Shown one piece after another: positions 11,817-31,769 of a stretch of DNA of 64,000 nucleotides. Source of the DNA: a virus. Both the position numbers and the translations under genes were made by a program. The stretch spans positions 77,528 through 141,527 of the IMG/VR virus record IMGVR_UViG_3300028376_000003; one strand, 5' to 3'. A model generated the notes under the pieces. The model made no database searches. It was given only the letters and a program-made list of their open reading frames with translations, and had not been told where the DNA came from. Within the stretch, counting starts at the first letter, position 1. Every line of letters begins with the position of its first letter.

Positions 11817-11951
11817 ATCATATATATTAAAATAATATCTTTGTTAATTATATCTTAAAAATAGTGTGTTAAATTAATACATTTCATATATTTGTATAAT
11901 AAATATCAAAAGAGACAAAACTTTTTTAATATATAGTATATAAACATAAAT

Positions 11952-12024
11952 CGCGGGGTAGAGCAGTAGGTAGCTCGCTAGGCTCATAACCTAGAGGTCG
12001 TTGGTTCGAGTCCAACTCCCGCTA
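11952..12024 (+). tRNA. tRNA-Met(CAT), initiator-like
   Basis: CGCGGGG start with unpaired 1:72; anticodon arm ctagg-CTCATAA-cctag; GGTTCGAGTCC. Confidence 0.9.
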
Positions 12025-13102: not shown

Positions 13103-13176
13103 GCAGGTAACGCATAAGTGATGGTGCACTAGCCTTCCAAGCTAGAATAGAATCGGTTTGATCCCGATTACCTGCT
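13103..13176 (+). tRNA. tRNA-Gly(TCC)
   Basis: ctagc-CTTCCAA-gctag. Confidence 0.8.
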
Positions 13177-21315: not shown

Positions 21316-21756
21316 ATGGGAGAAAAAATCACAAAAGGAGATTTATTTTTATTTACATCACATTATGATAATGGTCGTTCAGTCCATTACTATGGTTCAC
21401 TTGTAGAAATAATTGGTATTGCAAGTAATAGCATAATGATGGTAACTGGTGAAGGAGATTTAAACACTAAAGAGAAATTGCTTATAAGAATAATAAAGGA
21501 TAGTAACTTTAAAGACATTGATTCTAGTAAATTTTCTAAAACGCTTGTAAAAGATTTAAAAATTAAATTTAAATTTAATCTAGAAAATGATACCATTGAA
21601 GCAGATTCACATGATGTGCACAAGATAAATATAGACTATGGATTAGTTGAAATTGATAAAAAAATAGATAGGCTTTTAAAAGAGAAAACTCTTTACAATG
21701 ACTTTCATATCAGGACAAGAAAGCTAAGGAAATTATTAGATGATTCTAATGACTAG
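21316..21756 (+). CDS. Hypothetical protein
   Basis: C-terminal RTRKLRKLL tag. Confidence 0.55.
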   Translation: MGEKITKGDLFLFTSHYDNGRSVHYYGSLVEIIGIASNSIMMVTGEGDLNTKEKLLIRIIKDSNFKDIDSSKFSKTLVKDLKIKFKFNLENDTIEADSHDVHKINIDYGLVEIDKKIDRLLKEKTLYNDFHIRTRKLRKLLDDSND

Positions 21757-22304
21757 TTATTCTCAAATGGACTTATCTTAGAATCTATCAAAGACATCAA
21801 TTCATTGTGTGTTTGTGATAGATTCCTTGATACTAAACCATCTAAAATAAATCTAGTTTCTGTCACATACTTGCTGACAAATTTATCACTACCTTGTTCT
21901 AAATCTGAGCAATTGTGTAATCTATCAGCTAACTTTATAACAAGAGCATAACTAGTCATATTTAGCATTTTATCTAATAAATACTCTGATTTACCTACCT
22001 TCTCTATTTTGTTATTATCAGATGTAAGTTCTTCTACTATACTACTGACCATTTTTCCAAACTCTTCTTCTATATTACTAATAGTAACATCACAATCTTC
22101 AACAGTGTCGTGAAGTAATGCCGCAATACAAATTAGCTCCTTATTTTTACTCACCTTGACCTCCCTAACTATTTTGCTTACTGCAATTGGGTGCCATGCA
22201 TATTCTTTGCCAGAAAATTTTCTAAACTGTCCATCGTGTGCCTCTATCATAAATAATAGAGCCTTTCTTAGCTTTGTTTCTTTTTTAGTTTTCATAGTTG
22301 TCAT
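21753..22304 (-). CDS. HD-domain (p)ppGpp hydrolase-like protein (SpoT-HD/Mesh1 family)
   Basis: AHDGQFRK..EY..HP, AALLHDTVED, IKLADRLHN. Confidence 0.85.
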   Translation of the reverse strand: MTTMKTKKETKLRKALLFMIEAHDGQFRKFSGKEYAWHPIAVSKIVREVKVSKNKELICIAALLHDTVEDCDVTISNIEEEFGKMVSSIVEELTSDNNKIEKVGKSEYLLDKMLNMTSYALVIKLADRLHNCSDLEQGSDKFVSKYVTETRFILDGLVSRNLSQTHNELMSLIDSKISPFENN

Positions 22305-24238: not shown

Positions 24239-24267
24239 AAATAAATTTAAATCTTTTTAAAAAACAC

Positions 24268-24380
24268 TTGTGAGAAACAAATATTAGTTATATATTTGCA
24301 CAGAACCTAAAATAATTTAAACTTTTAGTAAAAAAAAGAATATAAATAACCAAAGGAAGAAATAAAATTTAATATATAAT
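24268..24380 (+). promoter_or_regulatory. Stacked host-type, putative middle and putative late promoters
   Basis: TATATTTG (~24291), AACTT-N16-TATAA (~24320-24345), TTAATATATA (~24369); homologous block at 28999-29090. Confidence 0.6.
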
Positions 24381-24384
24381 AGTG

Positions 24385-24504
24385 ATGAAAAATTTAAACC
24401 TAAATACAAATAGAAACTTAACGCTCAATGTGGTGAATATTATGTTATGTAATAGACCATCTAGGGGTTCTAGTGTATTTAATAAATTTCATCTTATGAC
24501 ATAG
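24385..24504 (+). CDS. Leader peptide 3 (MKNLNLNTNRNLTLNVVNIMLCNRPSRGSSVFNKFHLMT)
   Basis: Codons 3-24 use only N,L,T,R,V,I,M,C; contains TCTAGGGGTT antiterminator segment. Confidence 0.85.
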   Translation: MKNLNLNTNRNLTLNVVNIMLCNRPSRGSSVFNKFHLMT

Positions 24505-24741: not shown

Positions 24742-24749
24742 CAAATAAT

Positions 24750-24831
24750 CGGCATATACCAGCCCAAGCTGATACCTTGGAGAACTGTAGTTGGTAAGTT
24801 GAAAACGTAGGTTCGAGTCCTACTGTGCCGA
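24750..24831 (+). tRNA. Non-canonical tRNA-Ile(GAT)
   Basis: Acceptor cggcata/tgtgccg, anticodon arm ccaag-CTGATAC-cttgg, normal T arm; no D arm at the usual position. Confidence 0.7.
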
Positions 24832-24845
24832 CTTTTATGACACTT

Positions 24846-25039: not shown

Positions 25040-25120
25040 GCCTTAGTAGTCCCGATTGTCTTCTAAACAATTAAGGGTAATTGGAAGCTGAAAATATAGG
25101 TTCGAGTCCTATCTAGGGTA
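25040..25120 (+). tRNA. Non-canonical tRNA-Arg(TCT)
   Basis: Acceptor gccttag/ctagggt, attgt-CTTCTAA-acaat, normal T arm; no D arm at the usual position. Confidence 0.7.
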
Positions 25121-26037: not shown

Positions 26038-26055
26038 ACTCTTATATATTAATTT

Positions 26056-26707: not shown

Positions 26708-28933
26708 TTAGAAATTTTCGTTTAATGGAAAATTCTTTAGATAAATTTTATCATTGGCATTATCACCAAATATTAAATATTTAGAGTCATCACCCAATAT
26801 ATATTGATTCAATACTTTATTATGAGCTTCCTCTGGGATAACATCACTAAAAAGTCTTATGTTAGTAACCTTCATATCAGATGCTAATATCTTAGGATTT
26901 TTATCAATATTATACTGAATAGGTTCTATGTCTTGTTTATTATAATACTCTTTTCTCAAAATTGTACTATTAAGCATTTTTGCATCATCTTCTATATCTA
27001 CATTTCTCTTATATATATAATTTTCAATATACCTTTGACGTTGGTTTAAATTTAGCACATAACAATACCAAGTATCTTCCTCTAATGCATCACTTTCCCC
27101 ATCATTTAACTCAAATATATATTCTTCTTCATTCATAGTAACTGTAATGCTATCATTCTTTAGACTAGACTTCCATCCTTTATTAATCCCATTGTCATAA
27201 ACGTCCATAAATTTATAAACTTCATCTTTTATGTAGTTATTTATACTAAACCAAACTTGTAATGATATGTTGTCAGATACATCAAGTATAGAATTAAAGT
27301 TCTTGTATTGAACTGCCAAACCATTATATTCTACTGTTGATAAATCATAACAATATTTAGATATTATGGTTGTTGAGTTTTCAATAAGTTCTTTATCAAC
27401 TTCAGAAAAATACTCAAGTCTAATAGGATCTCTAGATAAAGGTTGTTGTTCCTTCTTATTAGCAATTGACTTCTTATCTTGTTCTATCTCCTTTCCAAAT
27501 AGTTCATCAATAGTAGTATTCTTTGTTAACTCACTAATGCTATTAGAAATTTCTGGAATATCTGTCTGAACATTTGATTTTTGAGAATATTTTTTGAGAA
27601 TAAGTTTATAATAAACAGCCGCATTATTAAAATTTCTAAACTGTTGAGCATGGTCAACTTGATACATTCTATTAACTTGACAAAAATGTATAAAATCTTC
27701 TTTAGAAGGTCTTCTCTGGACACCAAACATTTCCTTAAATTGTTTCTTTGTTATATGTGCTTCCATTGAATCAAATAATCCTAAATCGAATATGTTCATC
27801 TTAATCTGTGAGTCTGGAAAATTATTACCATCAATAGATATTTTTAAATCTCCCTCACACACAACATTATATAATTGATATTCATTAAGTGTGTGGTCTT
27901 GACCATTGGCATCTGGATCAGTTGCATAATAAGTTACTTTATGTCCTAGTACTTGTTCAGAGTCTGTACTTAATTTTTCATATAGTTGAGTAGCTTGTGT
28001 TTGTTCATAAGGATTATATAACTGAGCCTTGTCTGTATCTGTCATTGGTTTAAATGCATCATTCTCACCTTCACAGTTGTTACCTGTTGTGTTTAAATTA
28101 TCATTCATTATATACTTACCTTCACTGTTTATATAGCCTATCTGGTTGGATTTACAACATTCTCTTATCCCAAATAGATTACTCTTTTTATAATCTTCCT
28201 TAACATTTTGAAAATCTCCTACTAAATTTATGTCTTGAAACCTAGACACTGATCCCGATTTGTTATCAATAAGATATTCTATTTCAAAGAAACGTATAGG
28301 GTTTATCCTTTTGGTTGTTATATTTTCTTTAGTCAATGGTTCCCATTCAGTCCAAGTTCTAGAGTTATCTTGTGAGAATCTATACTTTATACTTATGTCA
28401 TCTAAACTAGTTATATTAATGATTTGTATATCTTCTAATTTAAAAACTTTATATATGAAAGGTGCTTTTACTATCTTAGAATCACCTGGCTCTATATAAA
28501 ATGCTTGTTCACCATTGAATTGTATTTCTTGTCTATCTATAATACCTTCTAATTTATATTCTAGTATTCTTATACTACCTATTTCAGAAGTTCCCTTTCT
28601 CACCCATTTAATTTCAAGGTACATACTATCTAGTGTATCAACAACTGGGAAGTTGGTTATATTAATATTTAAGTCTAACCACTCAGACCATGTGTTACCA
28701 TCTCTGGAAACTCTATAATATTGTAAGAGAAATCTATCTTGTTTAAGACCTAAACTATCGTATGTAAATCTTTTGAACTTTTCCACATTATCTAACTTAT
28801 CAAAAGATAATATGTATTCATCATTGATAGAATTTAGATAAGGAGTTTCATCTTCAACACCAGTTGCCATCACGTCATATTCATCTGATATAGTTATTAT
28901 TCCTTTCTCAAAATCTGAGTTTATATTTACCAT
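26708..28933 (-). CDS. Virion protein, possibly gp14-like neck/head-closure domain with lectin-like C-terminus
   Basis: Central GHKVTYY...PSKEDFIHF..RMYQV pattern resembles T4 gp14 by eye; late motif upstream. Confidence 0.45.
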   Translation of the reverse strand: MVNINSDFEKGIITISDEYDVMATGVEDETPYLNSINDEYILSFDKLDNVEKFKRFTYDSLGLKQDRFLLQYYRVSRDGNTWSEWLDLNINITNFPVVDTLDSMYLEIKWVRKGTSEIGSIRILEYKLEGIIDRQEIQFNGEQAFYIEPGDSKIVKAPFIYKVFKLEDIQIINITSLDDISIKYRFSQDNSRTWTEWEPLTKENITTKRINPIRFFEIEYLIDNKSGSVSRFQDINLVGDFQNVKEDYKKSNLFGIRECCKSNQIGYINSEGKYIMNDNLNTTGNNCEGENDAFKPMTDTDKAQLYNPYEQTQATQLYEKLSTDSEQVLGHKVTYYATDPDANGQDHTLNEYQLYNVVCEGDLKISIDGNNFPDSQIKMNIFDLGLFDSMEAHITKKQFKEMFGVQRRPSKEDFIHFCQVNRMYQVDHAQQFRNFNNAAVYYKLILKKYSQKSNVQTDIPEISNSISELTKNTTIDELFGKEIEQDKKSIANKKEQQPLSRDPIRLEYFSEVDKELIENSTTIISKYCYDLSTVEYNGLAVQYKNFNSILDVSDNISLQVWFSINNYIKDEVYKFMDVYDNGINKGWKSSLKNDSITVTMNEEEYIFELNDGESDALEEDTWYCYVLNLNQRQRYIENYIYKRNVDIEDDAKMLNSTILRKEYYNKQDIEPIQYNIDKNPKILASDMKVTNIRLFSDVIPEEAHNKVLNQYILGDDSKYLIFGDNANDKIYLKNFPLNENF

Positions 28934-29093
28934 AACTCTATATATTAAAAAAGATTATTTTAATTTAAAAAAAACCTTGTATAAACCATTTATTTATATT
29001 ATATTTGCATAGAAATAATATAATTCTAAACTTTTATAAAAAAAAGTCTATAAATAACCATAGAGAGAAATAAAAGTTAATATATAAAACATA

Positions 29094-29198
29094 ATGAAAA
29101 ATTTAAACTTAAACATAGTAGTTAACCCTCAACCCCAAGTTGATATCGATCAGGATTCTGATACGAAAGGTGCTAACTATGTTTTAAATTTAAGTTGA
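29094..29198 (+). CDS. Leader peptide 4 (MKNLNLNIVVNPQPQVDIDQDSDTKGANYVLNLS)
   Basis: CCT CAA CCC CAA GTT GAT ATC GAT CAG GAT TCT GAT run upstream of Asp/Gln/Pro tRNAs. Confidence 0.85.
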   Translation: MKNLNLNIVVNPQPQVDIDQDSDTKGANYVLNLS

Positions 29199-29216
29199 TA
29201 TTTAAATAATAAAAAC

Positions 29217-29256
29217 AAAAACTCGGTTAGTCTTTTAGATTAACCGAGTTTTTTTT
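29217..29256 (+). terminator. Intrinsic terminator / attenuator 4
   Basis: AAAACTCGGTTAGTC-loop-GATTAACCGAGTTTT plus T tract. Confidence 0.9.
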
Positions 29257-29264
29257 GTTTATAT

Positions 29265-29337
29265 AGCTCTGAGGTCAAATGGTTAAGATGTACGTCTGTC
29301 TCACGTAACGGAGTGGGTTCGATTCCCATCAGAGCTG
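29265..29337 (+). tRNA. tRNA-Asp(GTC)
   Basis: tacgt-CTGTCTC-acgta. Confidence 0.88.
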
Positions 29338-29349
29338 CTAATATTAAAT

Positions 29350-29423
29350 TGCCCCATAGTGTAATTGGCTAACACATCTGGTTTTGGTCCAGAAGATTGC
29401 AGGTTCGAACCCTGCTGGGGTAA
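29350..29423 (+). tRNA. tRNA-Gln(TTG)
   Basis: tctgg-TTTTGGT-ccaga. Confidence 0.9.
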
Positions 29424-29432
29424 CAAGTTAAT

Positions 29433-29506
29433 CGAGAAGTGACTAAGGTTATAAGCACGGGTGCATTGGAGGCATCAGTTAGCAGGTTCGATTCCTGTCT
29501 TCTCGA
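29433..29506 (+). tRNA. tRNA-Pro(TGG)
   Basis: ggtgc-ATTGGAG-gcatc; weak D arm. Confidence 0.75.
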
Positions 29507-29518
29507 CAAATTTTTAAT

Positions 29519-29590
29519 AGTCCATTAGTGTAAAGGTTATCATTTCCGACTGTCTCTCGGAAGATAGGGGTTCGAATCCCCTATGGACTG
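29519..29590 (+). tRNA. tRNA-Asp(GTC)
   Basis: tccga-CTGTCTC-tcgga. Confidence 0.9.
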
Positions 29591-29596
29591 CAAAAA

Positions 29597-29670
29597 TGCT
29601 CTATAGTGTAATTGGTTAACACGTCTGGCTTTGGTCCAGGAGATTGTAGGTTCGAACCCTACTGGGGCAA
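29597..29670 (+). tRNA. tRNA-Gln(TTG)
   Basis: tctgg-CTTTGGT-ccagg. Confidence 0.9.
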
Positions 29671-29679
29671 CAAGTATAG

Positions 29680-29752
29680 CGAGGGTGTAGTGTAATCTGG
29701 TAACACACGATGTTTGGGACATCGAATTGCTGTTCGAATCGGACATCTTCGA
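29680..29752 (+). tRNA. tRNA-Pro(TGG)
   Basis: cgatg-TTTGGGA-catcg. Confidence 0.8.
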
Positions 29753-29772
29753 CAAAAATTATAGTTAAAACT

Positions 29773-29830
29773 AAATGTTGTTAATAAGCAACATTTTAGC
29801 ACTTTTTGTTGTTAATAAGCAACAAAAAAA
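29773..29830. repeat. Two tandem hairpins sharing TGTTGTTAATAAGCAACA, likely terminator(s)
   Basis: Direct repeat of an imperfect palindrome right after tRNA array 4. Confidence 0.55.
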
Positions 29831-31731: not shown

Positions 31732-31769
31732 ATAAGGTATATATTAAATATAATTACTACATTTGCAAA

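Follow-up and report, generated by a model that had tools for sequence, protein, structure and literature searches.

We analyzed a stretch of 64,000 nucleotides of viral DNA (IMG/VR virus record IMGVR_UViG_3300028376_000003, positions 77,528 to 141,527; hereafter the window, whose coordinates are used below unless another record is named) and focused on cassette 4, a short element located directly ahead of a group of tRNA genes. The region 28977-29753 reads as a single transcription unit composed of a promoter, a 34-codon open reading frame (ORF), an intrinsic terminator and six tRNA genes. We consider it likely that cassette 4 is a ribosome-mediated (leader-peptide) transcription attenuator gating this six-gene tRNA operon of a very A+T-rich Bacteroidota phage. 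A preliminary description of the sequence had proposed such an attenuator, and the layout of the unit, its reading frame, the control codons, a cassette-specific antiterminator and the match between leader and cargo are all in line with it, in silico. The predicted elements of cassette 4 are listed here together with the evidence used to define them.

28977-29007, + strand: predicted Bacteroidota-type promoter, with TTG at 28977-28979, a 20-nt spacer and TATATTTG at 29000-29007 (sequence and pattern scan)
28970-29114, + strand: block common to cassette 3, comprising the promoter, the 5' untranslated region and the first 7 codons (alignment with 24262-24405)
29077-29086, + strand: TTAATATATA motif, 8 nt upstream of the leader start codon (over-representation and conservation)
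29094-29198, + strand: leader ORF of 34 codons with stop TGA (ORF call and homologue alignment)
29127-29162, + strand: control codons 12-23, CCT CAA CCC CAA GTT GAT ATC GAT CAG GAT TCT GAT (codon count)
29100-29127, + strand: segment 1 (codons 3-11), pairs with segment 2 (folding)
29166-29196, + strand: segment 2, of which 29166-29185 is the antiterminator 5' strand and the whole pairs with segment 1 (folding)
29217-29236, + strand: segment 3, the terminator 5' arm and loop, pairs with segment 2 or 4 (folding)
29237-29260, + strand: segment 4, the terminator 3' arm (29237-29253) and T-tract (29249-29256), then GTTT (folding and terminator scan)

The control codons of the leader match the tRNAs encoded downstream. 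Codons 12-23 encode P Q P Q V D I D Q D S D, i.e., two Pro, three Gln and four Asp in 12 codons, and simulations of a 12-codon run in a 33-residue peptide with the composition of this phage gave a probability of P = 1.35e-5 for such a run of nine. The preliminary description had matched these codons (PQPQ-D-DQD-D) to a twofold Asp-Gln-Pro array, and both the codon count and the cargo set bear this out. The signal is specific to the reading frame, since cargo amino acids represent 27% of the codons of this leader in frame versus 3% and 6% in the other two frames. Over the whole leader of cassette 4 alone, nine Pro/Gln/Asp codons were observed relative to 4.1 expected (p = 0.017). No match to the leader peptides was found in Pfam or PHROGs.

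Six tRNA genes follow the terminator.

29265-29338, + strand: tRNA-Asp (GTC) (ARAGORN; Rfam, 50.7 bits)
29350-29424, + strand: tRNA-Gln (TTG) (ARAGORN and Rfam)
29433-29506, + strand: atypical tRNA-Pro (TGG) (Rfam, 30.4 bits for a threshold of 29; alignment with relatives)
29519-29591, + strand: tRNA-Asp (GTC) of a second type (ARAGORN and Rfam)
29597-29671, + strand: second copy of tRNA-Gln (TTG) (ARAGORN and Rfam)
29680-29753, + strand: tRNA-Pro (TGG) of the standard type (ARAGORN and alignment)

ARAGORN called Asp, Gln, Asp, Gln and Pro, and the third gene (29433-29506) was called by Rfam only. This gene aligns with the ARAGORN-called tRNA-Pro(TGG) genes of the nearest relatives of the source contig, the uncultured phages LR745206 (635 kb) and LR756502 (642 kb), and it presents TGG at the anticodon position, which indicates that Asp-Gln-Pro twice is the correct array. 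Because the two tRNA-Asp(GTC) genes are only ~60% identical and the two tRNA-Pro(TGG) genes are of different types, the array is not a recent tandem copy. The doubled Asp/Pro set of 29265-29753 is kept in relatives. Altogether, four atypical tRNA-like genes were missed by ARAGORN in the window (13103-13176, 24745-24840, 25040-25120 and 29433-29506); three of them reached 30-44 bits with Rfam and 24745-24840 was called by neither tool. Since ARAGORN misses such genes, the array contents used in the statistics below are lower bounds.

The correspondence between leader and cargo extends to other cassettes. Homologues were collected by BLAST and three pattern scans from LR745206, LR756502 and IMG/VR contigs of 14-476 kb; most loci returned by the pattern scans were chance matches without tRNAs and were ignored. 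Leader-cargo statistics were computed on 14 cassettes, which came from five phage genomes or contigs with Cellulophaga phage phi4:1 among them. In 200,000 re-pairings of leaders with cargos, the observed match was never reached (p <= 5e-6), and within four genomes the true pairing was the best among 24, 6, 6 and 6 permutations. When the 14 cassettes were pooled, cargo amino acids represented 46% of the codons in frame versus 19% and 14% in the other frames. The leader is not constant whatever the downstream tRNAs: cassettes with other cargo carry other control codons. For instance, L120 presents separate Leu/Arg, Asn/Val/Cys/Thr and Gln/Pro/Asp leaders, each ahead of exactly its matching array. 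The arrays of L004 and L005 share the atypical tRNA-Pro and carry Tyr, Lys, Gly and Thr tRNAs without tRNA-Asp, and their leaders contain Tyr/Gln/Pro/Lys/Gly/Thr codons and no Asp codons. Gln-run leaders precede Gln-only arrays in LR745206, LR756502, L091 and L117. Finally, the cultured Cellulophaga phage phi4:1 (NC_021788) possesses three leader-terminator cassettes before its three tRNA sub-arrays, which are unrelated in sequence and follow an equal logic; one of them encodes the run Q-R-L-H-L-Q-E-L-E-Q-P ahead of Pro, Glu, Gln, His, Leu, Leu and Arg tRNAs.

L001 2469-2590 and 2985 onward (LR745206), L002 2501-2615 and 2962 onward (LR756502): Gln-run leader cassettes
L025 9068-9196, 10026-10170 and 11773-11926 (NC_021788): the three cassettes of phi4:1, at about 87.0-90.0 kb of that record

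In LR745206 and LR756502, the Gln leader, its terminator and the tRNA-Gln array are followed by a glutaminyl-tRNA synthetase (GlnRS)-like gene with a HIGH motif. The Gln cassettes of these two phages are nested behind a predicted Pro/Asp attenuator and, because no promoter motif was found between the two, they would constitute two gates in series. We considered the extra Arg codon of LR756502 as a possible match to an Arg tRNA and dropped it, as the anticodons of the odd tRNA-like genes (L002 2230-2470) were not assignable by eye. In phi4:1, the first two cassettes share an identical promoter block, and the hypothetical protein annotated as gp075 probably corresponds to a leader peptide whose start was set incorrectly.

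The folding of cassette 4 is that expected of a switch. The terminator element (29217-29260) is located between the promoter and the tRNA genes, with the first tRNA (29265) 5-8 bases beyond it. Its stem (29217-29253) comprises 17 pairs closed by a TTT loop, followed by a T-run to 29256 and then GTTT, with an energy of -22.5 kcal/mol (z = -7.3). The gene upstream of cassette 4 (26708-28933) is on the - strand, and the hairpin is therefore not the end of a preceding gene. When folded on its own, the ORF reached -25.5 kcal/mol (z = -4.4), which none of 200 shuffles equaled, by forming a long helix (segment 1:2) in which codons 3-11 pair with codons 26-34; the preliminary description had overlooked this helix. 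That description had assigned to the terminator a partner of its own, and we recovered GCTAACTATGTTTT at 29172-29185 and its target AAAACTCGGTTAGT at 29218-29231; the pairing is longer than initially noted and extends to 29166-29185 with 29218-29236 (17 pairs). Relative to 300 dinucleotide shuffles (-8.7 +/- 1.9 kcal/mol), this antiterminator has a z of -2.4 (p = 0.027). The energies of the competing duplexes are -17.5 (1:2), -13.3 (2:3) and -23.2 kcal/mol (3:4). In the absence of a ribosome, the predicted fold is 1:2 plus the terminator (3:4). We then modeled a stalled ribosome as a 30-nt mask that placed its A site on codons 11-17 of an RNA ending ahead of segment 4, and the minimum-energy fold became the 2:3 antiterminator; a mask at the stop codon, or no mask, leaves segment 3 free for the terminator.

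Several of these elements are conserved among the homologues, of which 13 come from large uncultured phages. In the alignment of ten leaders (MAFFT), the ATG is invariant, every indel within the ORF is a multiple of three and the Pro and Gln codons vary synonymously at their third positions; these patterns argue for translation of the ORF 29094-29198. The preliminary description had suggested to test stem covariation, and the outcome differs between helices. RNAalifold on the ten homologues returned the terminator only, for which three pairs present compensatory changes (one pair of columns is found as GC, AU, UA and CG); helices 1:2 and 2:3 did not present such a signal (see below). The core of segment 2, CTAAC, was found in 13 of 14 family members and is replaced in LR756502 by CTAAT, which keeps the pair as U-G. 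Opposite to it, GTTAG is present in all 14 distinct terminators of the family, a total that comes partly from earlier searches that were not leader-only, and the 2:3 duplexes range from -7.9 to -14.6 kcal/mol. Our first scan of the family was biased for 2:3, since its pattern held both strands of the pairing. The scan was repeated with a leader-only pattern (GATCAGGAT, a gap and CTAACTATG), on which the argument from GTTAG is based. In L011 and L156, a stem rebuilt around CATAAG leaves GTTAG outside it, in the loop; its conservation there is explained only by pairing with segment 2. The 2:3 core is nearly invariant and the register of 1:2 differs among homologues. Across 23 cassettes, which are not all independent and four of which were chosen by the biased pattern, antiterminator duplexes outperformed dinucleotide shuffles with a median z of -2.5; cassette 3, whose duplex is unrelated in sequence, reached z = -6. 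As a side observation, the leader of L011 (2599-2757, - strand) carries a frameshift in its first codons that yields a perfect 1:2 helix (-31 kcal/mol), and its frame restarts at an internal ATG right before the Pro/Gln/Asp codons.

The 5' part of cassette 4 is shared with cassette 3. The block 28970-29114 is 83% identical to 24262-24405, relative to 48 +/- 13% (maximum 67%) for random 145-nt segments of the genome, and the first seven codons match at 19 of 21 bases. Beyond codon 7, the two cassettes share 46% identity, which is the background level. The homology of the promoter block and of the first codons (MKNLNLN) claimed in the preliminary description thus holds up to codon 7, and the cassettes are unrelated beyond. 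The same description viewed cassette 4 as a duplicated and reprogrammed copy. A shared block followed by a differing remainder supports this view; the event was not a recent one in this genome, since both types of cassette are present as separate units in the distant relatives LR745206 and L120, and duplication and reprogramming must be old. Similarity of the 5' block is 0.81 between cassettes 3 and 4 and 0.52-0.73 to any orthologue, which points to within-genome homogenization, or to a joint constraint on the promoter and segment 1, atop an old paralogy. In the folding model, the common first codons would not be neutral baggage, as they form segment 1 of the switch.

The promoter was predicted from the Bacteroidota promoter consensus as generally known. 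An identical layout is present in cassette 3 (24268-24298), and orthologues keep the TAnnTTTG box with unchanged spacing. The loose Bacteroidota pattern was found 16 times in the window versus 9.9 times in shuffles, an over-representation that is not clear and that speaks against calling the promoter by pattern alone; the call at 28977-29007 is accordingly based on where the element lies and on its conservation in paralogues and orthologues. The motif TTAATATATA is present in 20 copies in the window relative to 2.9 expected, mostly 6-12 nt ahead of start codons on either strand; the sites include 29077-29086 (+), 28939-28948 (-), 11926-11935 (+), 26043-26052 (-) and 31738-31747 (-). One copy is located 16 nt ahead of a tRNA-Met (tRNA at 11952), and the motif is kept ahead of leaders in related phages. 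It looks like a phage-specific promoter yielding near-leaderless transcripts, and the copy at 29077-29086 is possibly a second promoter of cassette 4. Neither TAnnTTTG nor TTAATATATA was found within 29257-29760, which suggests that the tRNAs are made only by read-through of the hairpin. A weak hairpin (ATGTTG/CAACAT) followed by TTT, noticed by sequence inspection only, is possibly the end of the tRNA unit; the terminator scan made no call there.

29775-29797, + strand: weak hairpin and TTT after the last tRNA

Based on these elements, cassette 4 would operate as follows. Transcription would start at the promoter 28977-29007, and perhaps also at TTAATATATA, and a ribosome would translate the 34-codon leader while the RNA polymerase advances. 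When Pro-, Gln- and Asp-tRNAs are plentiful, the ribosome would pass codons 12-23 and segment 2, which would then be inside the ribosome or re-paired with segment 1; 3:4 would form and transcription would stop at the T-tract, 5-8 bases ahead of the first tRNA. When any of these tRNAs is scarce, the ribosome would stall around codons 12-17 and its body would hide the 3' half of segment 1. Segment 2 (29166-29185) would be freed and would pair with the emerging segment 3, the terminator would be blocked and the six tRNA genes would be transcribed. The new tRNA would lift the stall, closing a self-correcting loop of negative feedback. Without translation, 1:2 and 3:4 would both form and the unit would be off. 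Translation of the ORF, termination at the hairpin, read-through caused by stalling and tRNA shortage during infection as the natural signal are all steps that we infer.

Several observations weigh against this interpretation. Column-wise covariation of 1:2 and 2:3 was not above shuffles when the helices of the window were projected on the MAFFT alignment, and the 2:3 pairing presents no compensatory double changes; the support for both helices is conservation and per-sequence energy, not compensatory change. In cassette 4 alone, the antiterminator is just modestly above shuffles. The strength of helix 1:2 varies, being strong here and in some relatives and weak in others (z from -0.3 to -4.7), and a possible 1:3 pairing arises in the prediction when the mask lies on segment 2. 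A ribosome at the stop codon covers just the last 5 bases of the antiterminator strand, and shut-off must therefore lean on the re-pairing of 1:2. Both Pro control codons (CCT and CCC) differ from CCA, which is the Watson-Crick cognate of the UGG anticodon. The cassettes entering the leader-cargo statistics are partly interrelated. Finally, a stalled ribosome cannot distinguish a missing tRNA from a missing amino acid, and extra tRNA would be of no help under starvation.

One alternative, which we consider unlikely, is that the switch is real and its input differs: it would sense amino-acid starvation or charging, or translation as such, and would serve to time or shut down tRNA synthesis, for example when host defence or phage takeover halts ribosomes. 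It is established for the trp and his attenuators that ribosome stalling is governed by charged tRNA. Stalling of the ribosome on this leader would likewise depend on charged tRNA rather than on tRNA as such, and the fold predicted without a ribosome (1:2 and 3:4) is the off state. The GlnRS-like gene behind the Gln leader of LR745206 and LR756502 would place charging capacity under the same control, and a gene for a putative RelA/SpoT-type hydrolase (HD_4) is located nearby. However, a match between leader and cargo in cassette after cassette is expected of a sensor that is subject to feedback from the product it controls, and a general sensor of translation or starvation needs no separate codon list for each array.

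Control might also be post-transcriptional, with a translated leader and a real hairpin affecting the processing or stability of the tRNA precursor through the entry of RNase P or RNase E. Only 5-8 nt lie between the end of the hairpin and the position where RNase P would cut the first tRNA, and the present data would fit termination and processing alike. Nevertheless, a G+C-rich stem of 12 pairs with additional A/U pairs followed by eight T corresponds to a textbook intrinsic terminator, and a conserved alternative pairing that removes exactly its 5' arm fits the control of termination and has no evident role in processing, which makes this scenario improbable. It is more improbable still that there is no regulation and that a small ORF and a leaky terminator precede the tRNAs by accident, with a codon match due to chance or composition: short ORFs and weak pairings are common in such A+T-rich DNA (28.7% G+C) and the whole-leader enrichment of cassette 4 is modest (9 vs 4.1, p = 0.017), but this scenario is at odds with the scan probability of the control codons and their frame specificity, with the permutations of leaders and cargos, with the conserved frame and synonymous changes, with a GTTAG kept outside the stem and with the equal design of unrelated cassettes and of phi4:1.

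The attenuator that we propose resembles those of amino-acid operons (trpL, hisL, leuL, pheL, thrL, ilvL) in presenting a promoter, a short ORF with a run of control codons, mutually exclusive 1:2, 2:3 and 3:4 pairings and an intrinsic terminator just ahead of the regulated genes. The energies of its segments rank in the same order as those of trp and, as in thrL and ilvL, a single leader samples several amino acids. In contrast to these systems, cassette 4 would regulate tRNAs rather than enzymes, with a product acting directly on the sensor; its control codons are located in the loop between segments 1 and 2 and not within segment 1; and it is phage-borne, with Bacteroidota as the host group. 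No known Rfam leader family (Trp, His, Leu, Thr, Phe and others) was detected in the window at the gathering threshold or in 28950-29270 at E <= 10. The best weak match was the trpB motif, with 27 bits for a threshold of 59 and covering the hairpin only. T-box riboswitches also couple tRNA status to terminator read-through via an antiterminator, but they bind uncharged tRNA directly, possess no ORF and are mainly found in Firmicutes before synthetase or amino-acid genes. We rejected a T-box here, as the same Rfam searches yielded no T-box match and a conserved reading frame is present instead. In E. coli, the pheST attenuator (pheM leader) controls a synthetase and reads one amino acid. As proposed for cassette 4, it is a leader-peptide attenuator through which the supply of the matching charged tRNA governs a part of the translation machinery, but cassette 4 would control tRNA genes, and the nearest parallel to pheM is the arrangement of Gln leader, tRNA-Gln genes and GlnRS-like gene in LR745206 and LR756502. 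Of the known systems, the multivalent thr and ilv leaders come closest in design and the pheST attenuator in purpose.

Genes for tRNAs are usually viewed as promoter-controlled, through growth rate and the stringent response. We know of no leader-peptide control of phage tRNA clusters, and full-text literature searches returned no paper describing leader-peptide attenuation of tRNA genes. The tRNA arrays described here resemble the clusters of large phages (T4, T5 and the huge phages of Al-Shayeb et al.) in being matched to phage codon usage.

The source contig is 141.5 kb long, has a G+C content of 28.7% and probably represents part of the genome of a huge Bacteroidota phage. ARAGORN called 20 tRNAs in this contig, all of them inside the window, in four groups of which the present unit is the last. 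The gene on the - strand upstream of cassette 4 (26708-28933) encodes a 741-amino-acid protein with 61.5% identity to a protein of LR745206 and distant kinship with neck proteins of Tenacibaculum phages. A 183-amino-acid protein encoded near the tRNA operons (21753-22304, - strand) presents a RelA/SpoT-type HD domain (Pfam HD_4, 1.7e-16). It is possibly a (p)ppGpp hydrolase and might dampen the stringent response that uncharged tRNA elicits.

The question of when and why phages express tRNAs of their own is still open in the field. If our interpretation is correct, cassette 4 would directly couple, in a self-correcting manner, the speed at which given codons are decoded to the supply of the tRNAs that read them. 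It would also explain the partition of phage tRNA arrays, with one codon list for each sub-array, and would provide a rule for annotation that works in both directions, from leader to cargo and from cargo to leader. For synthetic biology, such a cassette would constitute a compact and programmable part, a codon-specific sensor driving an RNA output. Because the design is also present in the cultured Cellulophaga phage phi4:1, it is testable by ordinary methods. More tentatively, it is possible that large Bacteroidota phages run their whole tRNA complement on demand, with a separate codon-checklist leader ahead of each sub-array and with some of these units nested in series. The phage would then measure codon by codon which host tRNAs fail during infection and would replace exactly those; the failure might stem from codon-usage mismatch, from host shut-off or from tRNA-cleaving defence nucleases. 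If true, this regulation of tRNA genes would form a new class and would double as a built-in sensor of defences that target tRNA.

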